From the NCBI GenBank assembly GCA_963736855.1, contig CAVTQK010000006.1, positions 79,328 to 143,327 of the forward strand: a stretch of DNA of 64,000 nucleotides. The letters are read 5' to 3'. This DNA comes from an uncultured delta proteobacterium (GTDB lineage: Bacteria; Desulfobacterota; Desulfobacteria; Desulfobacterales; UBA2156). The position numbers and the translations under genes were made by a program. Shown here one piece after another: positions 22,352-64,000 of the stretch (position 1 is its first letter; each line of letters opens with the position of its first letter). A model generated the notes under the pieces. It was not told where the DNA came from, did no database searches, and saw only the letters and a program-made list of their open reading frames with translations.

Positions 22352-22363
22352 AAAAAAAATGAG

Positions 22364-22456
22364 ATCCACCACAGGGGCGGCGAAGCAAGCCTGAGAAGGT
22401 ACCCTTTGAACCTGATCCGGGTAATGCCGGCGTAGGGATGAGATGCGGTGGAGATT
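22364..22456 (+). ncRNA. TPP (THI-box) riboswitch
   Basis: P1 arms tccaccac / gcggtgga enclose GGGGCG...CTGAGAAGGTACCCTTTGAACCTGATCCGGGTAATGCCGGCGTAGGGA, matching the TPP aptamer consensus. It sits directly upstream of thiM-thiE-thiL. Confidence 0.9.
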
Positions 22457-22470
22457 TTCAGAGGGGACCA

Positions 22471-22508
22471 AGGGTTGTTTTTGCCAAAAAAACAACCCTT
22501 TTTTTATT
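22471..22508 (+). terminator. Riboswitch expression platform: intrinsic terminator hairpin plus T-run
   Basis: agggttgttttt-gcc-aaaaaaacaaccct followed by tttttttatt. Confidence 0.7.
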
Positions 22509-22523
22509 CCAAAGGAGATGTCC

Positions 22524-23330
22524 ATGACACATTTTTCCAGCCAGGCTGCTTTAAATCTCCGGATGATTCGGGACACGAGACCGCTGATCCACAACATCAC
22601 CAACTATGTGGTCATGAACTATACAGCCAACGCCCTTTTGTGCGCCGGGGCCTCTCCCGTGATGGCTCATGCCGCGGGAGAGGTGGAAGACATGGTCTCC
22701 CTGTCGAAAGCCCTGGTCCTCAACATCGGGACCCTCACCGATGATTGGGTCGCCTCGATGATCCAGGCTGGAAAGCGTGCCAATGTGTTAAATATACCAG
22801 TGATCCTGGATCCTGTAGGATCGGGGGCCACTGCATTGCGAACCCGTTCGGCCAAGCGGATCCTCGAGCAGACTTCCGTCAAGGTGCTGCGGGGAAACGC
22901 ATCGGAAATTCTGTCACTGAGAAGTGCTGACTCGAAAACCAAGGGCGTCGATTCGATCCATTCCGTTGAAGACGCCGCCGATATAGCCGGGACTCTTGCC
23001 CGGGAATTGAAAACCACCCTGGCCATCACGGGAGCCGTGGACATGGTCACTGACGGAAAACAGAAGGTTCGAGTCGAAAACGGACATCCCCTGATGGGAA
23101 AAGTCACGGGAACCGGATGCACGGCAACGGCAATCATCGGCGCTTTTCTGGCCGTAGACGGCGATCCGGTCATCGCAGCCTCAACCGCCCTGGCCTTTTT
23201 CGGCCTGGCCGGAGAGTACGCCGCTAAAAAAGCTCAATCTCCGGGGAGTTTCATGATCGCACTTCTGGACGCCCTGTATGACATTTCACCCGATGAACTC
23301 GAAAAAGAGTGCCGGATCCGAGAAGCGTAA
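22524..23330 (+). CDS. thiM: Hydroxyethylthiazole kinase
   Basis: LIHNITNYVVMNYTANALLCAGASPVMAHA motif. ORF 22443 extends over the riboswitch; ATG 22524 has GGAG 6 nt upstream. Confidence 0.85.
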   Translation: MTHFSSQAALNLRMIRDTRPLIHNITNYVVMNYTANALLCAGASPVMAHAAGEVEDMVSLSKALVLNIGTLTDDWVASMIQAGKRANVLNIPVILDPVGSGATALRTRSAKRILEQTSVKVLRGNASEILSLRSADSKTKGVDSIHSVEDAADIAGTLARELKTTLAITGAVDMVTDGKQKVRVENGHPLMGKVTGTGCTATAIIGAFLAVDGDPVIAASTALAFFGLAGEYAAKKAQSPGSFMIALLDALYDISPDELEKECRIREA

Positions 23331-26746: not shown

Positions 26747-29068
26747 TTAAGCAGGGACGTCCCTGATTTCGATTCCCATGGACCGAAGCCGGTCCCGGAT
26801 TCGGTCCGCAGCGTCCCAGTCTCCGGCGTTACGGGCTGCTTCCCTGCTTTTGATGAGGGCAATGATCTCCGGGTTTGGTGTGCTGTCCTGAAACCGGAAA
26901 ATGTTTAAAACCCTGTCGATATCCTGAAATGCGCGGATAATCTTTTCAGCTCCCTTATCATCAATTTTTCTTTGCCGGATGTCGATGTTGATCTTTCTGA
27001 TATTATTAAAAAGCGACGCCAATGCCTCAGGCATATTTAAATCGTCATCCATGGCCGAAAGGAATCCATGCTTGATGTCATAAAGGAGTTGATCCACCTC
27101 GGGGTCCGGGGCTCCCCCTTTGATCTGCCGGAGGGAATGAATACAAGCGTCGATCCGTCTCAAAACACGTCTGGCTTCTTCCAGCCGATCCTGCGAAAAA
27201 GCCAGCGGCTTTCGATAATGATTGGAAAGAAGCCAATATCGAATTTCGCGGCCGGAGAACCCCTTATCAAACAGATCCTTAAGGGTCACTCCGCCTTGCT
27301 TTTTTTCCTTTTCTGCAGCGTTGAACAGGACCCGCTCACAGTGAATCCAGTAATTGGCCATGGGGTGCCCGGTCAAGGCCACGGAAATGGCGATGTGATT
27401 TTCATGGTGGGGAAAAACCAGCTCCCGACCGCTGGTATGAATATCGTACCGATCCCCCATGGACTTCCTGGCTATTGCCGCACACTGAAGGTGCCACGAC
27501 GGACGAACATTCCCCCACTCGGTCTTAACGAAAATCCCGCGTTTGAGTTCGGAAAGTCTCGACCGTTTCATGAGGGTGAAATCCCTGGGATTGTCCTTTT
27601 CGTATTCATCCAGATCCACCGTAGCCCCGAGCTTGATTTTATTGATATCGATTCCGGACAGTTTTCCGTAATCCGGGATCCGGGAAATATTAAAATAAAG
27701 GGATCTCAGCTTTTCATAGGCAAACCCGCTCTTCTTGAGGTCACGGGCCATCTGAACCATATCTTGGAGATTTCCGCTTGTCCGGGGATAGCTGTCCGCC
27801 GGCCGGACGCCCAGGGATTCAAGGTCCTTTTGAAACCATTGAATGTGCTCATCCGTAAACTCGGGAAGGGAGATATTGGCCGATTCCGATCCTGCCAGGG
27901 TTTTGTCGTCGAAGTCGGTGATGTTTACGATATGACGCACCGCATACCCCCGGTATCCGAGGTACCGGCAAAGCAGATCGGAAAATACGAATCGGCGGCA
28001 TTCTTCGATTTGCATTCGGGCATGTGCGGTGGGACCGCAGGTATAGAGCGAGGCCTTACCGGGAATCAGGGGCTTAAAGATCTCCTCTTTCCGGCTCATT
28101 GTGTTAAAGAGCCTCAAGTCCACCTTTTCTTTTATTGCAAAGAGAGTCGTGCTGAGATACCTTTCCCCGCCGTCCGGAAGGATTACCACCATGACACCCT
28201 TTTCCATGAGAGCGGCTTCCCTGCAAGCAATTGCCATGGCCGCGCCGCTGCTCATCCCTGCAAAAATCCCCTCTTCTTTGGCCAGCCGTCGGGTCATCTC
28301 GAAAGCTTCTTCATCCTCGACGTTGATCTTTTTATCCAGGCGATTCTTATCGAAGATTTCAGGCTGGTAAGCCTCTTTCATGTTCTTAAGCCCCTGGATT
28401 TTATGACCCAGGTAAGGCTCCACACCGATAATCTGGACGGCCGGATTGTATTCCTTCAGCCGCCTCGAGATCCCCATAAGGGTGCCTGATGTCCCCAGGG
28501 TCGCCACCACAGCGGTAACCGCTCCATGGGTCTGGCGCCAGATCTCTTCGGCAGTTCCATGGTAATGGGCTTGCCAGTTGGCATCGTTGTTATACTGATC
28601 CGGCATGAAATAAAAATTCGGATTCTCCCGGGACATCCGATAAACTTCCTCGATGGCGCCGTCGGTTCCTAAGTGTCCCGGGGTCAGAAGGATCTCCGCC
28701 CCCCGAGCCTTAAGGATTTTTCTTCGCTCTTCACTCACCGCTTCCGACATGGCCAAGAGGAGGTGGTATCCCTTCACTGTACATACCAATGCCAGGCCGA
28801 TTCCCGTGTTACCGCTGGTGGCTTCGATGACCGTTTTGTCGGGCTTCAAAAGGCCGCAATGTTCCCCGGCTTCAATCATGGAAAGCGCAGGGCGATCTTT
28901 CACCGATCCGCCCGGATTAAACGATTCCAGTTTCGCCAATAGCCTCACCCTCGGGTTGGGGTTTAACCGCCGAATCTCCACTATAGGGGTGTTGCCGATG
29001 GCATCAAGGATGGACTGGTTCATTCGTGCTGGATCCTCAAATTCGGCCAGAGCCTGCACGCATGCCAT
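26747..29068 (-). CDS. Fusion protein: PLP-dependent cysteine synthase (CysK/CysM-like) N-domain plus cysteinyl-tRNA-synthetase-like C-domain with degenerate class-I motifs
   Basis: Residues 1-310 carry NTPIVE, GGSVKDRPA (PLP Lys), TSGNTGIGLA and ILPDGGERYLST. From about residue 318, LRLFNTMSRKEEIFKP...LYTCGP...NITDFDDK...WHLQCAAIA...FPHHENHIA aligns to CysRS. However, HIGH is replaced by MQIE and KMSKS by KEKKQ. Confidence 0.8.
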   Translation of the reverse strand: MACVQALAEFEDPARMNQSILDAIGNTPIVEIRRLNPNPRVRLLAKLESFNPGGSVKDRPALSMIEAGEHCGLLKPDKTVIEATSGNTGIGLALVCTVKGYHLLLAMSEAVSEERRKILKARGAEILLTPGHLGTDGAIEEVYRMSRENPNFYFMPDQYNNDANWQAHYHGTAEEIWRQTHGAVTAVVATLGTSGTLMGISRRLKEYNPAVQIIGVEPYLGHKIQGLKNMKEAYQPEIFDKNRLDKKINVEDEEAFEMTRRLAKEEGIFAGMSSGAAMAIACREAALMEKGVMVVILPDGGERYLSTTLFAIKEKVDLRLFNTMSRKEEIFKPLIPGKASLYTCGPTAHARMQIEECRRFVFSDLLCRYLGYRGYAVRHIVNITDFDDKTLAGSESANISLPEFTDEHIQWFQKDLESLGVRPADSYPRTSGNLQDMVQMARDLKKSGFAYEKLRSLYFNISRIPDYGKLSGIDINKIKLGATVDLDEYEKDNPRDFTLMKRSRLSELKRGIFVKTEWGNVRPSWHLQCAAIARKSMGDRYDIHTSGRELVFPHHENHIAISVALTGHPMANYWIHCERVLFNAAEKEKKQGGVTLKDLFDKGFSGREIRYWLLSNHYRKPLAFSQDRLEEARRVLRRIDACIHSLRQIKGGAPDPEVDQLLYDIKHGFLSAMDDDLNMPEALASLFNNIRKINIDIRQRKIDDKGAEKIIRAFQDIDRVLNIFRFQDSTPNPEIIALIKSREAARNAGDWDAADRIRDRLRSMGIEIRDVPA

Positions 29069-54600: not shown

Positions 54601-55527
54601 TTAATTCACTTTAGGGCGAGGCAAAACTTTGGCCATTTCGGCGATTTCCGGGACCTTATGCTCCCACTCAATGGCCATAAGGTGCACGCCAGCCACCCCT
54701 TTCAATTCCTTAAACTCTTCGATCTGCTCCACGGCCATCTTGATTCCTTCCTCCCCCTGTTTTTTCTTGTCCACCCCCTGCAGGCGGCTGATGATCTCGT
54801 CAGGAACGTCCATCCCGGGAACCTTGTTCTTCATATACTTGGCCATGCCGATACTTTTCATGGGAGTGACCCCCGCCAGGATATAGGCTTTTTCCGTCAA
54901 CCCCATGTCGTTGGCTTGTTTGATGAATTCCCGGAATTTATTCATGTTGTAGATGCATTGGGTCTGAATGAAATCGACGCCGGCGGCGACCTTTTTGGCC
55001 AAACGATGCACCCGCCATTCAAAAGGATCGGCGAAGGGGTTCGCAGCTGCTCCGATAAACATTTTTGGAGCCCCGTCCAGATCGGCGCCGCTTAGGAATT
55101 TCCCCTCGTCCCGCATCTTTTTGACCGTAGCGATCAGCTGTATGGAGTCGATATCAAAAACTCCTTTGGCCTGAGGGTGATCCCCGAATTTGCAGTGGTC
55201 TCCGGACAGACATAAAATATTACGTATGCCGTGCGCGTAGGCACCCAGGATGTCCGACTGCATGGCAAGGCGATTCCGGTCCCGGCACACCATCTGGTAG
55301 TTGGGTTCGATTCCATCCTGGATTAAAAAAATGCAGGAAGCCCAGCTTGACATTCGGACCATTGCGGTCTGGTTATCCGTGATGTTGACCGAATCGACAT
55401 TCCCCTTCAAGAAAGCGGCCTTTTTTCGCACTTCTTCGGCGTTTGCACCCCTGGGTGGGCCCAATTCGCCGGTGAATGCAAAATGCCCTGCCCTTAAAAC
55501 CTTTTCCAAATTGCTTCCTGATTTCAT
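54601..55527 (-). CDS. metF: Methylenetetrahydrofolate reductase (acetogen/SRB-type MetF)
   Basis: MKSGSNLEKVLRAGHFAFTGELGPPRG...VNITDNQTAMVRMSS is typical of MTHFR. It is paired with the small GPCGG protein upstream. Confidence 0.8.
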   Translation of the reverse strand: MKSGSNLEKVLRAGHFAFTGELGPPRGANAEEVRKKAAFLKGNVDSVNITDNQTAMVRMSSWASCIFLIQDGIEPNYQMVCRDRNRLAMQSDILGAYAHGIRNILCLSGDHCKFGDHPQAKGVFDIDSIQLIATVKKMRDEGKFLSGADLDGAPKMFIGAAANPFADPFEWRVHRLAKKVAAGVDFIQTQCIYNMNKFREFIKQANDMGLTEKAYILAGVTPMKSIGMAKYMKNKVPGMDVPDEIISRLQGVDKKKQGEEGIKMAVEQIEEFKELKGVAGVHLMAIEWEHKVPEIAEMAKVLPRPKVN

Positions 55528-56095: not shown

Positions 56096-56973
56096 ATGCA
56101 AATGAATCTGCAGCTGCATCACGTCGTCAGCGATATTACAGGTGCCACGGGAATGAAAATCATTCGTTCAATCATTGCGGGAGAACGTTCCGCCAAAAAG
56201 CTTGCCTCCTACCGAGACGTGCGCTGCAAAAAGTCCGAGCAGACTATCTCCGATGTACTAACCGGCAACTATCGTCCAGAGCACGTTTTTGCCCTTAAAC
56301 AAGCTGTTTCGCTATATGATTTCTATCAGGGGCAGATTGCCGAGTGTGATAAAGAAATTGAAGCGATGTTATCAAAGCTGAAAACTGAAAAGCCTGCACC
56401 GAACCAGACCCTTCCCAAGGCGCGTCACCGGACCAAGCAGAAAAACGAGCCTGATTTTGCCCTTCGCCAGTCGCTTTACATGTTGGTTGAAGTGGATCTG
56501 ACTAAAAAAACGGAATCGGTGCATACACGGCCTTGCGTCTTATTGCCGAATGCGACAACGATATGGGCAAATGGCCGACATTAAAGCATTTTGCATCGTG
56601 GCTCTGCCTATCACCCGGCAATAAAATATCCGGCGGCAAGGTGCTGGCGAGCAACAAGCGTAAAACCAAGAGCAGGGCAGCAACACTTTTTCGAATAGCT
56701 GCGGTGAATGTCGGAAAAACCCAGACCGCTTTAGGTGCATTTTATCAACGTTTATCCACCAGAATCGGCAAGGCAAAAGCCGTCACTTCCACGGCCAGAA
56801 AGCTTGCCGTCTTGTTTTACAATGTGATGCGGTACGGAACATCATTTGTTGAAACCGGTTCTGATTATTACGAAAAACAGTATATAAAAAAAGTTCTGCA
56901 AAACCTGTCCCGTCGAGCAAAAGATCTGTGCTTCGAATTGATAAAGATGAAGGGACATGCTGCTGCTCCGTGA
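56096..56973 (+). mobile_element. IS110-family transposase pseudogene: 5'-truncated (catalytic DEDD domain missing) and frameshifted
   Basis: NLQLHHVVSDITGATGMKIIRSIIAGE... then NGIGAYTALRLIAECDNDMGKWPTLKHFASWLCLSPGNKISGGK...ARKLAVLFYNVMRYG (Transposase_20 region). The frame changes inside the A7 run at 56504-56510. Confidence 0.8.
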
Positions 56974-57925
56974 ATGTTTCTTAGGAAAGCCACCGCGTAC
57001 TTTGCCAAGGAGTCGCTGCACGGCATGCGGTGATGGAGGAGATGCGACTCGACTATCCGTTGGGGTGTTGTGCCGGGTATTTGGGGTATCGGCCAGCGGA
57101 TTTCATGCCAGGCGCAGCCGTGGGCCTTCTCGGAGGGCGCGGGAAGAGGGACAGTTGGAAACTGAGATCCGGGCCGCCCACAAGCGTACGCGGGAGACCT
57201 ACGGTCCGGAGCGTTTGCAGCGGGATCTGGCGGCTCACGGAGTGCATATCGGGGTACATCGGATTAAGCGCATTCGTCGCAATCTTGGCCTGCGGTGCAG
57301 GCAGAAGCGAAAATTCAAGGTTACCACCGACTCTCGGCACAGTCTGCCGGTGGCCGACAATCTGTTGAACCAGCGGTTCCAGGCCGAGGCACCCTCCCGG
57401 GCGTGGCTGAGTGACATGACTTATATTCCCACCGATGAGGGGTGGCTTTACCTGGTCGGCCACAAGGACTTGTGCACCCGCAAGATCGTCGGCCATGCCA
57501 TGGGCGAGCGCATGACTCGGAATCTTGTGATCGAGTCGCTGCTGCGGGCTGTGGAGACCACAGGATCCTGTACCGGTCTGCTTCATCACTCGGACAAGGG
57601 GAACCAGTACTGCTCTCACGAATACCGAAAGATGCTCGATTGCCTCGGGATGACGGTCTCGATGAGCGGAACCGGGAACTGTTACGACAATGCCCCTATG
57701 GAGAGCTTCTGGGCAACGCTTAAGACCGAGTTGATCTTTCATCGACGTTTCGCTACCCGACTCCAGGCCATTCGGGAAATAACCGAATACATTGAAGTGT
57801 TCTACAATAGACACAGAATTCAGAAAAAGCTGGACTATTTTTCACCAGCGGCATTCGAACACCGATTCTATGAACAGCGGTTAGCAGCATGATAAATTGG
57901 TGTCCACTATTGACGACCGATACCA
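56974..57925 (+). mobile_element. IS3-family element remnant: last ~17 codons of orfA plus DDE orfB, 5'-truncated, with an extra frame break
   Basis: orfA tail LRKATAYFAKESLHGMR*. orfB has D (WLSDMTYIP), D (HHSDKGNQY) and E (YDNAPMESFWATLKTE). The N-terminal EEMRLDYP is in a different frame from VGVLCRVFGVSASG (break near 57059). The right end, near 57925, is a guess. Confidence 0.8.
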
Positions 57926-58297: not shown

Positions 58298-61200
58298 CAT
58301 GACCACTAAAGTTCATGGATCTGTAATGGTAGTAGGCGGCGGAATCGCTGGAATGCAATCCGCCCTGGATCTCGCCAATTCTGGATACTATGTGTATCTT
58401 GTTGAAAAGTCCGCAGCCGTCGGAGGGTTGATGTCCCAGATTGACAAGACCTTCCCCACAAACGACTGCGCCATGTGAATTATCTCACCCAAACTGGTCG
58501 AGGTCGGCCGGCACCTCAATATTGAACTCATTACAACAGCAGAATTAATTGATTTGCAAGGCGAACCTGGGCGGTTCAGCGCTCGGATTCGCCAGGAACC
58601 CCGCTTCGTAGACCTGTTAAAGTGTACAAGCTGCGGGGAATGTGCTAAAGTTTGCCCAGTGTCACTCCCCAACGAATATGATGAAAACCTCTCCCAAAAG
58701 CACGCCGCTTACAAACAATATGCCCAGGCTATTCCGGGAGCTTATGCGATCCAAAAGGCGGATAAAGCGCCTTGCCGTTTAGCCTGCCCTGCTGGTTTGA
58801 ATGTTCAGGGATATGTCCAGATGGTTGGCCAGGGTAAATACAAGGAAGCTCTGGAAATCATCATGGAAGATCTTCCCCTGCCCGGAGTACTCGGCAGGAT
58901 TTGCCCTCATGGGTGCGAAGAAGCTTGCAGGCGGTGTCAAGTTGATGAGCCGGTTTCTATTCGTAATCTTAAGCGCCTTGCAGCAGATCAATTTGATCCG
59001 CGCAAAATAGAAATCAAATGCTTGCCAAGAAGGGAAGAAAAGGTTGCAATCATTGGATCGGGTCCGGCAGGACTTTCAGCAGCTTATCAATTGGCTCGAA
59101 AAGGAATCCTTTCGACAATTTTTGAAGCACAGCCAAAACCAGGTGGAATGTTGAGATTGGGTATCCCCGATCATCGTCTGCCTATCGAAGTTCTGGATAG
59201 AGAAATAGAAGTCATTACCAATCTGGGTGTAGAAATTAAAACCAATTCACCTCTCGGACCGGACTTGACCGTTGATGACCTTTTTAAGAAGGGCTATAAA
59301 GCGGTTTACTTGGCAATAGGCGCCCATAAAGGGATTGAACTGGGTATCCCTGGTGAAAAAGCAAAAGGCGTCCGCCAGGGCGTTGAATTTTTACGTGAAG
59401 TAAACCTTGCAGGCAAAACAACAGTTGGCAAAAAAGTTGCTGTTATCGGAGGCGGAAATGTTGCCATAGATGTTTCCCGCGCAGCAGTTCGATTAGGTGC
59501 GGAGAAGGTGATGATCATCTATCGCCGGACAAGAGCCGAAATGCCTGCCTGGGAAGAGGAAATTCAAGCGGCGGAATCAGAAGGCGTTGAAATTACATAC
59601 CTTTCAGCACCTCAGGAAATTCTTATTGAGGATGGCAAAATCGTTGGGGTGCGCTGCATCCGGATGGAACTTACAGAACCGGATTCTTCAGGACGAAGAA
59701 GACCTGTGCCGGTTCCCAGATCGGAATACGACATTGAAATCGACCAGATTATCCCTGCAATCGGTCAACGTGCGGACCTGAGTTCTATCGAAGATGTTCC
59801 GGATTTGAAATTTACACGGTGGGGAACAGTTGAAGTTGATCCCATCACTTATGCAACAGGAAAAGAAGGTGTATTTGCAGGCGGTGATCTGCAAAGCGGT
59901 CCATGGATCGCAATCGGAGCAATTGCTACCGGGAAGGAAGCTGCCGAATCCATTTTCAGATTCATAGAGGGTCGTGACATGGCAGAAGGAAGGGAAGCCA
60001 TTACCAATGAAAATCCTGTTTACCAACCCATTCCTGAAAATGAGCCTCGTAAAGCCAGGGCAAAAATGCCGCATCTTCTTTTAGAAGAGCGGAAAGACAG
60101 CTTTAAAGAAGTTGAAATGGGGTTTGATGAGACTTCGGGAAAAGAAGAAGCCAAACGATGTTTGAATTGCGGTTATTGTTGTGAGTGTTTTCAGTGTGTG
60201 GGCGCATGTCTTGCAGGCGCTATCGATCATAGCCAGGTTCCGGTGGAAAGAACCATTGATGTCGGTAGCGTAATTCTTTCACCCGGAACTGAAGTCTTTG
60301 ATCCTTCAAAGATGGATGAATTTTACCATTATAAAACAAATCCCAATGTCATGACGGCATTAGAATTTGAACGTATTTTAAGCGCTTCCGGACCAACCAT
60401 GGGACATCTGGTTCGACCCTCGGATCACAAAGAACCGAAGAGAATCGCATGGCTTCAATGTATCGGTTCAAGGGATACCAACAGATGCGGAAACAGTTAT
60501 TGTTCTTCTGTTTGTTGCACCTATGCAGTCAAAGAGGCGATGATCGCCAAAGAACATTCCCACGGCGATCTGGATTGCGCTGTATTCTATATGGATATCC
60601 GGACATTCGGAAAAGATTATGAAAAATATTATAACCGTGCTCGTCATAAAAACGGTGTTCGGTTTGTTAAAGCCAGAGTTCATACCATTAACGAGGAGCG
60701 GGACAATAAAAATTTAATCATCCGATATGCAGATGAGACCGGTCAAATTCAGGAAGAAATTTTTGACATGGTGGTTCTGTCGGTTGGGTTGGAAGTACCC
60801 AAGTCAACAATTGAATTGGCAAAACGGCTCAACATTGAACTCAATCCCCATAATTTTGCTGTAACTCCGACATTTGCCCCGGTTGAAACCACAAGACCCG
60901 GCGTTTATGCTTCCGGTATCTTCCAGGGACCAAAGGATATTCCGAGTTCGGTTACTGAAGCAAGTGCTGCGGCGTGCGCTGCGGGCACATTCATTGCCGA
61001 AGGTCGCGATACGCTAACTAAAAAAGTCGAAGTTCCTGAAGAAATTGATGTTGCAAATAAGGAACCGCGGGTAGGTGTTTTTGTTTGTAACTGCGGCATA
61101 AATATTGCGGGTGTTCTGGATTGTAATGCATTGGTGGAGTATGCCAAGAGCCTTCCTAATGTGGCTTTTGCCAAGCAAAACCTCTTTACCTGCTCCCAGG

Positions 61201-62729
61201 ACTCTCAGGAGATAATGAAGAAAGATATCGAGGAGAACAATCTTAACCGTGTAGTGGTGGCTGCATGCACCCCTAAAACCCATGAAGCCATTTTTATGAG
61301 CACGATGGAAAGTATCGGTTTAAATAAGTACCTCTTTGAAATGGCTAACATCCGCAATCAGGATTCCTGGGTTCATGCAAATAATCCGGATCTCGGCACG
61401 AAAAAAGCGAAAGAATTGATTCGCATGTCGGTGTCTAGAGCTGCCAGTTTAAATCCCCTCAAAGAAAAAGTAATCCCAGTAACCAAGCGGGCGCTTGTCA
61501 TCGGAGGCGGGATTGCCGGTATGAATGCCGCGCTTGGGATTGCACAACAGGGGTATGATGTCGCTCTTGTGGAAAAGGAAAAAGAACTCGGTGGAATGGC
61601 AAGAAATCTTTTTCATACCATTGAAGGAGATGACATCCAGGCATACCTCAAAAAATTGATCGGAGAAGTGAAAAACAAATCCAAAATCAAAGTATATACG
61701 GACGCCCGTATTACTGAATTTAAGGGCTTTAAAGGAAATTTCGTCACAACAGTCACGGTTGGAGGAGAAAAACAGGAAATTAAGCACGGCATAATTATTA
61801 TCTCAACCGGAGCTAAAGAATATCGACCCAAGGAATTCCATTATGGAGAAGATCCACGCGTTGTTACTCAGTTGGAACTGGGCAAACGATTGGAGGAAAA
61901 GGGTGCTTCAGATATTTCAACAGCGGTCATGATTCAATGTGTTGGTTCTCGGAATGAAGAAAATGAAAATTGCTCTCGTATCTGTTGCCAGAATGCAATA
62001 AAGAATGCTTTGACAATTAAAAAAACAAACCCGGATTGTCAGATTTTTGTGCTTTACCGGGATATGAGAACTTACGGATTTTTGGAAGATTATTACCTAG
62101 AAGCCAGAAATCGCGGCGTCATATTTATTCGTTTTGAGCAGGAAGAACCACCGGTCGTCAGTAGCTCATCCGAAGGTCTTGTTGTACGAGTGAAGGATCA
62201 TGTGTTGCAGAGAGACATAGAGATTTCAGCAGATATTCTAGCGCTGAGCGCAGGCGTAGTTGCAGCGGATACCGATGAACTCAGCGGCATCATGAAACTG
62301 AATCGAAGCCCTGAAGGCTTTTTTATAGAAGCCCATGTGAAACTCAGACCTGTGGACATGCCCAGCGAGGGTATTTTCCTCTGCGGTACTGCCCATTCGC
62401 CGAAACTGATATCTGAAACCATTGCCCAAGCGCAAGCAGCCGCTTCTCGGGCGATGACATTCCTTGCCAAGTCAGAACTCAAGCTTTCTGCAATCACAGC
62501 TAAAGTTGATACGGATCATTGTGTGAAGTGTTTAACATGTGTTCGTTCATGCCCATTTGGCGTGCCAGTGTTTAATGAAAAGGAAAAGGTTATTGAAATT
62601 GATGAGGCGCTCTGTCATGGGTGTGGCATTTGTGCGTGTGTTTGTCCGAGGGAAACAATACAACTCAGTTACTATGAGGATGATCAAATAACCAGTAAAA
62701 TTGACGCATTGTTGGCGGAGGGGATGTAA
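58298..62729 (+). CDS. Giant HdrA-GltD-HdrA fusion flavo-iron-sulfur protein (HdrL-type) with a TGA (Sec candidate) at 58476 and a +1 frame break at 58440-58442
   Basis: AAGGAG plus ATG 58298 encodes [17 protein letters not shown]. After a 1-nt shift the frame reads [22 protein letters not shown], then continues as ORF 58554..62729. That ORF contains a GltD/NfnB-like module ([51 protein letters not shown]) and HdrA Cys clusters ([15 protein letters not shown]). It also has a second HdrA module ([27 protein letters not shown]) and a C-terminal 2x[4Fe-4S] region ([24 protein letters not shown]). Confidence 0.75.
58494..58511 (+). promoter_or_regulatory. Candidate SECIS hairpin for TGA 58476
   Basis: CUGGUCG-AGGU-CGGCCGG (7 bp including 2 G-U pairs), starting 15 nt after the TGA. 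Folded by hand only. Confidence 0.35.
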
Positions 62730-63152
62730 TGGCAGAATTTGAACCTAAAATTATTGCATTTTGCTGTGACTATTGAGGATATTCAGCCGCGGACCTGGCA
62801 GGTTCCATGCGACTGGAATATCCAACGAACGTCAAAATAATCCGGGTGCCTTGTACCGGAAAAGTTGATGTCATGCACCTTCTAAGGGCGATTCAAAAGG
62901 GCGCAGATGGCGTTTATTGCGTGGGCTGTTTGGAAGGGGCTTGTCATTATAACGCAGGTAACCTGAGAGCCCGGGAGCGTGTTGAATATGTAAAAAAACT
63001 TCTCAGAAGAGGTAGGGTTGGAGGGTGATAGGGTCAGGATGTATAATCTGACATCGGGTGAAGGTCCAACTTTTGCTGCATATGCAAAAGAAATGACCGA
63101 AAATATCAAAGCGCTGGGACCCAATCCATTAAAGAAATACACAACAACCTAA
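62729..63152 (+). CDS. mvhD: MvhD-like (methyl-viologen-reducing hydrogenase delta subunit family) protein with a TGA (Sec candidate) at 62774 and a +1 frame break near the A7 run at 62992-62998
   Basis: ATG overlaps the hdrA-like stop (TAATG). Reads [49 protein letters not shown]...GADGVYCVGCLEGACHY...EYVKK, then in the next frame EEVGLEGDRVRMYNLTSGEGPTFAAYAKEMTENIKALGPNP. The MvhD consensus is FCCNWCSYAGADLAG. Confidence 0.7.
62788..62811 (+). promoter_or_regulatory. Candidate SECIS hairpin for TGA 62774
   Basis: CGC-GGACC-UGGCA-GGU(U)CC-AU-GCG, with a bulged U, starting 11 nt after the TGA. Folded by hand only. Confidence 0.4.
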
Positions 63153-63157
63153 ATAAT

Positions 63158-64000
63158 ATGGGATCAACTATGGCACAGAAAGAAGTCATTAAAATCGGGG
63201 GAAAGAAGAAGAGCAAGTTCTTGGACAAAGTCAGGGAGATCCTTCCTGAAGAAGGACACCTGAACATGTGTCTGACGTGTGGGCTCTGTTCCTCGGGATG
63301 CCCTGCGACAGGGTTGGAAGGGCTTGATCCGAGGAAAGTGCTTCGCATGGCTGCTCTTGGAATGGATGAAGAATTGTTAAGCACTACAATGGGCATGGAT
63401 GTGCAGTATGTGCTGGCGATGTATGGTCGCATGCCCTATGAAAATCGATATCCCACAATTGGTCTTTAATATGCGGAAAAGCTGGCCTAGTAGAAACTCG
63501 ACCCAAAGGCATATTAGGTTCATGTGATATGGCGTTAAGAAGCGATACGTGTAGCGCCATGGGAGCGACTGAAGAAGATTTTGAATTTGTTGTCAATGAT
63601 GTGCTGGAAGAATATCGGGAAGGACAACCTGAACTTGCAGAAATGCAGGCTCCCATCAACAAGCAGGGTGCAGAATTTTTCTTGAATCAGAATTCAAGAG
63701 AGCCGGTTACAGAACCCGACGAAATGGTTCCGCTATGGAAAATCCTTCATCTGGTTGGCGCAGATTGGACATATGGAACCAAAGGCTGGGCTGCGGAAAA
63801 CTATTGTTTATTCATAGCAGATGACGAGGGCTGGAAGCATATTGTCCAGGTCAAAGCAAAAGCGGTAGATGATCTGGGCTGTAAAGTCTGGCTCAATACG
63901 GAGTGAGGGCACGAACTATTTGCAGTCCGGGCTGGACTGAAAAAATTCAACATTCCTTACAAGTTTGAAATCAAAAGCATCATTCAATATTATGCGCAAT
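63158..64000 (+). CDS. HdrD/DsrK/GlpC-family Fe-S oxidoreductase (partial, runs off the window), two frame breaks and a TGA (Sec candidate) at 63904
   Basis: The first CxxCxxCxxxCP motif (CLTCGLCSSGCP) is in frame 63158. The second (CSMCWRCMVACP) is in the +1 frame from about 63381. The remainder (VETRPKGILGSCDMALRS...DDLGCKVWLNTE-TGA-GHELFAV...) is in a further +1 frame from about 63480. The frame stays open for 31 codons after the TGA to the window end. Confidence 0.5.
63919..63942 (+). promoter_or_regulatory. Candidate SECIS hairpin for TGA 63904
   Basis: UUU-G-CAGUCC-GGGCU-GGACUG-AAA, with a perfect 6-bp core stem, starting 12-16 nt after the TGA. Folded by hand only. Confidence 0.4.

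Follow-up and report, generated by a model that had tools for sequence, protein, structure and literature searches.

The hdrD-like Locus

The DNA analysed here is a stretch of 64,000 nucleotides from an uncultured delta proteobacterium of the Desulfobacterales (contig CAVTQK010000006.1, positions 79,328 to 143,327), hereafter called the window, and its subject is a gene at the right-hand end of the window that encodes an HdrD-like protein and contains an in-frame TGA codon. The TGA is followed by a hairpin, and the two are interpreted below as a selenocysteine (Sec) codon with its bacterial selenocysteine insertion sequence (bSECIS). The features concerned are the following:

63170 to 64000, forward strand: predicted HdrD-like (HdrC-HdrB fusion) selenoprotein gene, the first 276 codons of about 440 after removal of two inserted bases; runs off the window end

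63904 to 63906, forward strand: predicted Sec-UGA of the HdrD-like gene, in the motif N-T-E-U-G-H

63913 to 63948, forward strand: putative bSECIS, with upper stem 63923-63928/63934-63939, apical loop GGGCU (63929-63933) and lower pairs UUU/AAA and GAA/UUC

The original prediction, made from the window alone, concerned an open reading frame (ORF) of 125 amino acids at 63529 to 63906 that ends in ...DDLGCKVWLNTE-TGA (...VWLNTE-TGA), and the coordinates given for it were exact. The 31 stop-free codons said to follow the TGA are present (GHELFAVRAGLKKFNIPYKFEIKSIIQYYAQ) and reach base 63999 at the window edge. So is the perfect 6-bp stem, which is formed by CAGTCC (63923-63928) and GGACTG (63934-63939) around the loop GGGCT (63929-63933) and begins 16 nt past the TGA. 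It can be extended as proposed by pairing UUU (63919-21) with AAA (63940-42), and folding revealed a second possible lower pairing between GAA (63913-15) and UUC (63946-48). Two further TGA sites had been pointed out in adjacent redox genes, and both were found, in HdrA/HdrL at 58476-58478 and in MvhD at 62774-62776. While the interpretation of the TGA and the hairpin was thus supported, the ORF starting at 63529 turned out to be only a fragment of the gene, two frameshifts upstream of it having been overlooked. Three-frame translation and Pfam place the true gene start at the ATG at 63170 (MAQKEVIK...), with an HdrC-like ferredoxin domain of the 2x[4Fe-4S] type at the N-terminus. No exact protein match is on record for the ORF at 63529-63906, or for the ORF at 54601-55527. 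As the window ends before the gene does, the full-length gene was read from relatives, among them L001, a metagenome contig that is the closest relative found (96% DNA identity overall).

Conservation of the TGA Codon

The gene was compared with 84 related loci from about 80 Desulfobacterales species, among them L001 to L004 and 80 loci found by scanning GTDB with a single genome for each species; with the window the comparison comprises 85 sequences. All of the 80 scanned loci belong to Desulfobacterales or related Thermodesulfobacteriota, and they include the complete genome of Desulfosarcina variabilis (L020). The codon is TGA in every one of the 85 sequences and never TAA or TAG. In the scanned loci it is followed by the residues GHE(L/F/M)FAVR or, in three of them, by GHVTFSVR. 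Extension of the frame beyond the point where the window ends had been suggested as a check, and in L001 and the 83 other loci the frame continues for about 195 codons past the TGA, is strongly conserved there as protein, and encodes a CCG domain (NNYCCGGGGG ... ITPCHNCH). Read-through in L001 to L004 gives a protein of 440 residues in which DPCQ..., NNYCCGGGGG and ITPCHNCH together make up a complete CCG motif. In these four loci the stop is TGA, and a separately called "CCG" gene is found downstream in the same frame.

A search with the repaired protein returned 2825 homologs. Among the 120 best of these, over 100 have a length of 243 amino acids and stop exactly at ...VWLNTE. That these database proteins are conserved to their last residue (WLNTE) is explained by gene calls truncated at the Sec codon. 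Homologs ending at this position would have spoken against a Sec codon; none truly terminates there, the entries of 243 amino acids being calls that were cut at the TGA. A second protein search, spanning the site, identified full-length homologs of 410-422 amino acids (54-68% identity) with a cysteine in NTE-C-GH. Cysteine occupies the Sec column in 12 of the 14 full-length homologs (among them P0128, P0131, P0133, P0140, P0141, P0153, P0163, P0176, and P0194), and T243, E244, G246, and H247 are invariant around it. At the same column P0121 shows W and P0212 shows F. The W in P0121 is probably a TGA that an annotation pipeline translated with another code table, and the F in P0212 could be either a genuine loss or a mistake. 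The pair of Sec and Cys homologs at this codon is the classical signature of selenocysteine. It is therefore considered very probable that the TGA at 63904-63906 is a Sec codon with a SECIS element in an HdrD-like protein.

The Putative bSECIS Element

The hairpin is conserved along with the codon. In a structure of 16 pairs, 86% of the cells were paired across the 73 distinct sequences found among the 85, as against at most 53% when the pairing partners were slid by 1-3 columns. Compensatory changes were found at pair 33-47 (AU 57, GU 10, GC 4, CG 1, UA 1) and at pair 25-54 (CG 17, UA 8), and the covariation score was above that of all 500 column shuffles. Between the UGA and about +45 hardly any synonymous site varies (the codon for Val is GTC and that for Arg CGG in every case, and Gly is GGA), whereas the third positions of the codons just upstream of the UGA vary freely.

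A prediction of SECIS elements had also been proposed as a check, and here the published bSECIS model was used. It asks for a loop of 3-9 nt with a G in the first two loop positions, an upper stem of 4-16 bp, a UGA-to-loop spacing of 16-37 nt, and a minimum free energy of -7.5 kcal/mol or lower (PMC13188914). With a loop of 5 nt that begins with GG, a stem of 6 bp (7 with a G-U pair), a spacing of 22 nt, and a minimum free energy of -9.7 to -13.2 kcal/mol, the window element lies within the model on all points. Rfam at its gathering threshold found no SECIS family in the window, its only match being a thiamine pyrophosphate (TPP) riboswitch, and this miss is not counted against the element because bacterial SECIS elements are diverse.

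Frameshifts in the Window Copy

Alignment to L001 revealed three extra bases in the window, one in mvhD, the gene just upstream, and two in the HdrD-like gene:

63005, forward strand: extra A relative to L001, frameshift of mvhD

63385, forward strand: extra T relative to L001, first frameshift of the HdrD-like gene

63491, forward strand: extra T relative to L001, second frameshift of the HdrD-like gene

The three single-base insertions lie within 490 nt, none of them in a homopolymer, and both proteins are perfect again once they are deleted. Compared with L001, the HdrD-like gene of the window has a ratio of nonsynonymous to synonymous substitution rates (dN/dS) of 0.023/0.516, or about 0.045, and the 14 replacements are all conservative, so that the insertions are probably either errors of assembly or mutations of very recent date. 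The divergence between window and L001 starts at exactly the point where the insertions begin, after some 1500 identical bases. The identity to L001 is a mosaic: it is about 100% from 61500 to 63000, about 85% and mostly synonymous in its differences from 63550 to 63880, and 98% from 63880 to 64000, the last 120 nt of the window with the Sec codon and the SECIS, where only 2 positions differ. Such a pattern points to recombination between strains or to a chimeric assembly, with an additional constraint on the SECIS region. A generally high frameshift rate in the window is not evident, as the other overlapping ORF pairs tested are intact separate genes, the IS110-like transposase excepted. Programmed frameshifting was rejected because the insertion sites are absent from all 84 relatives. 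Most probably the three insertions are consensus or assembly errors made where strains were mixed.

It is also possible, though less likely, that the insertions are real and that the hdrD-like gene and mvhD are pseudogenes in this particular genome, in which case the Sec codon and the SECIS would be recent relics that are no longer translated. Three insertions so close together and outside homopolymers, relative to a contig that is otherwise 96% identical, would fit such a decay, as would the insertion sequence (IS) elements just upstream (56096-57892), one of which has a split transposase ORF, and the intactness of the other overlapping ORF pairs, by which a high general error rate is not evident. 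On the other hand both genes are perfect once the bases are removed, and with a dN/dS of about 0.045 inactivation would have to be extremely recent. Furthermore, all three changes are insertions and they start where the divergence from L001 starts, which suits errors in a mixed-strain consensus, and an exact scan of metagenome contigs with a 30-mer holding the insertion at 63491 gave no match. The same kind of scan with the last 40 nt of the window gave no match either.

Weighing of the Interpretation

Several observations weigh against reading the TGA as a Sec codon with a redox function in this genome. First, the two upstream frameshifts, as the sequence is written, keep a ribosome that starts at the true start out of the frame of the TGA. 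Second, the window by itself would not have revealed the site. It holds 76 TGA-terminated open stretches that are 100 or more codons long, at least 31 open codons follow in 35 of these, and a perfect 6-bp hairpin occurs in 4% of random 37-nt segments, so that about 1.4 sites with TGA, open frame and hairpin are expected by chance and 1 was observed. The folding energy of the window hairpin is also unremarkable (z = -1.1 to -1.5 relative to shuffles). The signal at 63904 is, within the window alone, not beyond chance, and its significance comes from the comparative evidence; the earlier rating of this site as the weakest of the three was fair on what the window offers. Third, none of the Sec machinery (selA, selB, selC, selD) turned up in the 64-kb window, where no tRNA gene at all was detected and no SelB among the 10 largest ORFs; the organism is presumed to decode Sec, a trait for which the two further Sec codons of known type in the same operon argue indirectly. 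Fourth, the catalytic role of the Sec and its substrate are inferred. Fifth, an alignment of the Sec to a cysteine of the N-terminal CCG motif of HdrB was not found by sequence (hhalign of the N-half with the C-half, probability 0.3%), and searches of PDB sequences with the central domain gave chance matches only.

A true stop at this position is very improbable. It would imply two subunits, an HdrC-like ferredoxin of 243 amino acids and a separate HdrB-like CCG protein downstream, which is how public automatic calls divide the locus (into a product of 243 amino acids and a CCG product of 134-168 amino acids) and how HdrC and HdrB of methanogens occur, as separate proteins. However, no stop interrupts the 80-180 nt that separate the two called genes, the frame is kept there in every case, and immediately past the TGA, where G246 and H247 are invariant, the stretch is conserved as protein. 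The called start of the second gene varies among loci. The Cys homologs are moreover single fused proteins that have the Cys at exactly this codon, and the stop is TGA in 85 of 85 sequences and never TAA or TAG. A variant genetic code, in which the TGA would stand for some other amino acid such as Trp or Gly, has a negligible probability, since the one homolog with W at the Sec column (P0121) is most simply a TGA mistranslated by an annotation pipeline, the carriers are Desulfobacterales that include cultured Desulfosarcina, the homologs have Cys and not Trp or Gly at the site, and at the canonical distance there is a conserved hairpin of the SECIS type.

The Predicted Gene Product

The selenoprotein is predicted from its sequence to be soluble, HdrD-like and some 440 residues long, with an HdrC-like part that has two [4Fe-4S] motifs and an HdrB-like part that has one complete CCG motif. 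In the full-length L001 ortholog, Pfam finds Fer4_8 and Fer4_17 (4Fe-4S dicluster) at residues 31-92/93 and a single CCG domain at residues 298-389. Alignment of the homologs showed C303, C343, C344, C382, and C385 to be invariant, and these correspond to one complete CCG motif (CXnCCGXnCXXC). Sequence matches in the PDB are to HdrC for residues ~13-96 and to HdrB for residues ~257-401. An AlphaFold (AF2) model of the Cys homolog P0153, with a predicted local distance difference test score (pLDDT) of 85, matches EtfD of M. smegmatis, an HdrD-like protein, and it also aligns with whole HdrB chains over about 300 columns, at a template modelling (TM) score of 0.60-0.66 normalised to the target. 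On the strength of this match to whole chains, the model predicts a two-lobed HdrB fold for the C-terminal two-thirds of the protein, with the five cluster cysteines kept in only one of the lobes.

Among the NCBIfam models HmcF, TmcB, and DsrK match best, all of them far below the equivalog cut-offs (172 bits against a cut-off of 750, 165 against 735, and 111 against 400, respectively). By these scores the protein is not an equivalog of DsrK, HmcF, or TmcB and belongs to a subfamily that is related to them but separate.

Neighbouring Genes

The two genes upstream of the HdrD-like gene are predicted to encode selenoproteins as well, so that all of the first three genes of the cluster (hdrL, mvhD, and the hdrD-like gene) would be selenoprotein genes:

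58299 to 62729, forward strand: giant HdrA/GltD-type fusion (HdrL-like) selenoprotein gene, with Sec-UGA at 58476-58478 (FPTNDCAM-U)

62729 to 63152, forward strand: mvhD (FlpD family) selenoprotein gene, with Sec-UGA at 62774-62776 (FCCDY-U-GY); Pfam FlpD, E = 1.8e-46

The Sec codon of HdrL is TGA in 24 of 24 related loci, and that of MvhD is TGA in 36 of 49 and a Cys codon in the remaining 13. Both codons stand at positions where Sec is known in HdrA and MvhD proteins. The hairpin downstream of the MvhD codon has z = -2.9 relative to shuffles, and in the HdrL and MvhD hairpins the apical loop begins 21-23 nt past the Sec codon, the same distance as in the HdrD-like gene. The window stops short of the genes that follow, and these were therefore read from the orthologous loci L001, L003, and L004, where a MetV-like gene (DUF5981/MTHFR_C, E = 1.4e-34) comes next and is followed by metF (MTHFR, E = 8.4e-39). 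Given these two genes, the cluster resembles the MetFV-HdrABC-MvhD methylene-tetrahydrofolate reductase (MTHFR) of the Wood-Ljungdahl pathway. No membrane partner (DsrM, HmcE, or TmcC; Hmc or Tmc subunits) was found among the neighbours in the window, L001, L003, and L004.

Remnants of insertion sequences lie directly upstream of the hdrL operon (56096-57892). They consist of a split IS110-family transposase, whose two ORFs overlap (56096-56584 and 56533-56973), and of an ORF of 311 amino acids (56957-57892) that we take, by eye from its sequence, to be an IS3-family integrase. Farther away on the window are two features of another kind. The TPP riboswitch (Rfam RF00059, 61.6 bits) is found at 22363-22456 on the forward strand, upstream of the ORF at 22443-23330. 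An ORF of 772 amino acids at 26747-29068 on the reverse strand fuses a pyridoxal phosphate-dependent domain (PALP, cysteine-synthase-like) to a complete cysteinyl-tRNA synthetase, an unusual arrangement that would connect cysteine synthesis with tRNA charging.

Relation to Known Families

The closest known counterpart is the Fe-S oxidoreductase (GlpC)-like selenoprotein family of Deltaproteobacteria, reportedly described by Kryukov and Gladyshev in 2004. The HdrD-like gene was assigned to this family from its motif, architecture, and neighbours, the published reference member being WP_174406253.1. It shares with the family the U-G-H motif (as NTE-U-GH), the architecture of Fe-S and CCG domains, the existence of Cys homologs, the adjoining hdrA and mvhD/frhD selenoprotein genes, and the occurrence in Deltaproteobacteria. 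In that group the gene for the GlpC-like selenoprotein shares its operons with the selenoprotein genes hdrA and frhD/mvhD (Zhang et al., 2006, PMC1794560), and a review from 2026 gives UGH as the Sec motif of the family (PMC13188914). The published operons differ, however, in being linked to hydrogenase (glpC-hdrA-frhD-frhG-frhA), whereas the order here is hdrL-mvhD-hdrD-metV-metF, linked to methylene-tetrahydrofolate reductase. A further possible counterpart is found in the genome of Desulfobacterium autotrophicum HRM2, for which HdrL, MvhD, and a soluble HdrD (HdrD4) were reported as selenoproteins in 2009 (PMC2702500). By its description HdrD4 is, like the protein studied here, a soluble HdrD with Sec, HdrC and HdrB domains and no transmembrane part, and the organism, of the same bacterial order, likewise has giant HdrL selenoproteins followed by MvhD selenoproteins. 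The statement in the original prediction that GlpC/HdrD-like selenoproteins are known from Deltaproteobacteria was correct (PMC1794560, PMC13188914, PMC2702500).

DsrK, HmcF, and TmcB, the families with the best NCBIfam matches, likewise combine a ferredoxin domain with one complete CCG motif and have an identical T-E-C/U-G-H, but the protein studied here differs from them in its scores below cut-off, in having Sec in place of Cys, in the lack of a membrane partner nearby, and in its neighbours hdrL, mvhD, metV, and metF. Moorella thermoacetica, likewise a Wood-Ljungdahl organism, has a MetFV-HdrABC-MvhD methylene-tetrahydrofolate reductase (Mock et al., 2014, as reviewed in PMC5861303) with the gene set of the present cluster, i.e., an HdrA-type flavoprotein, MvhD, an HdrC/B module, MetV, and MetF. 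The predicted complex considered here differs from it in the fusion of HdrB to HdrC, in having a single complete CCG motif, in an HdrA of the giant HdrL type, and in the Sec that three of its subunits would have. Compared with the HdrABC of methanogens (PDB 5ODC, 7BKB, 8RVU), the model fits the HdrB fold and the N-terminal part aligns with HdrC; unlike methanogen HdrB, which has two noncubane clusters and two complete CCG motifs, the first motif would here consist of the Sec and a Cys that is not invariant.

Proposed Role of the Selenocysteine Residue

By the established bacterial mechanism, the hairpin at 63913-63948 would act as a bSECIS during translation. SelB with Sec-tRNA(Sec) would bind the apical loop, which starts 22 nt past the UGA, and Sec would be inserted at the UGA in place of chain termination. 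A likeness of the site to the ..ECGH.. cysteine motif of CCG proteins had been noted early on, and it agrees both with the homologs, which carry NTE-C-GH, and with the literature: DsrK, HmcF, and TmcB have one CCG motif and, left from the missing motif, one strictly conserved Cys (T/GECGH) that is probably essential for catalysis, i.e., for disulfide or trisulfide reduction (PMC10861901). The Sec in the invariant T-E-U-G-H is thus probably the single conserved cysteine position that remains from a lost first CCG motif. Equating the Sec with a CCG-motif cysteine of HdrB in this way draws on that literature statement and on the identity of the motif. The selenolate would then most likely attack the S-S bond of a disulfide or trisulfide beside the single noncubane [4Fe-4S] cluster, and two one-electron reductions through this cluster would follow. 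The electrons would reach the cluster from HdrL/MvhD via the HdrC-like clusters.

Implications

The gene agrees with the GlpC-like selenoprotein family in every feature that could be compared, and it is a further ortholog in a family for which selenoproteins have been described since 2004-2009. The immediate consequence of the finding concerns annotation. Public gene calls for the family are systematically wrong, as they divide the gene at the Sec codon into a stump and a separate "CCG" fragment, and thousands of database entries are either N-terminal stumps of 243 amino acids ('ferredoxin') or C-terminal pieces of 185-193 amino acids ('Fe-S oxidoreductase'). Recognition of the TGA as Sec restores an enzyme of 440 residues and would mark the organism as Sec-decoding.

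Sec usually marks redox-active sites, and its presence at T/GECGH would therefore be independent support for the proposed catalytic Cys of DsrK-type proteins. As the MTHFR-linked Hdr module of Desulfobacterales always has Sec at T/GECGH (84 of 84 loci), beside a single noncubane cluster, it is tempting to speculate, although this must be regarded as rather improbable, that the MetF-linked complex performs thiol/disulfide or trisulfide chemistry. If this were true, the second redox partner that has long been sought for the HdrABC-linked MTHFRs would be the substrate of this reaction, e.g., a (per)sulfide carrier that is DsrC-like or of low molecular weight, and the Sec site would be a direct handle for identifying that partner, by U-to-C or U-to-S variants and by trapping of selenenylsulfide adducts. 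The Wood-Ljungdahl pathway's methyl branch would then be coupled directly to sulfur redox metabolism.

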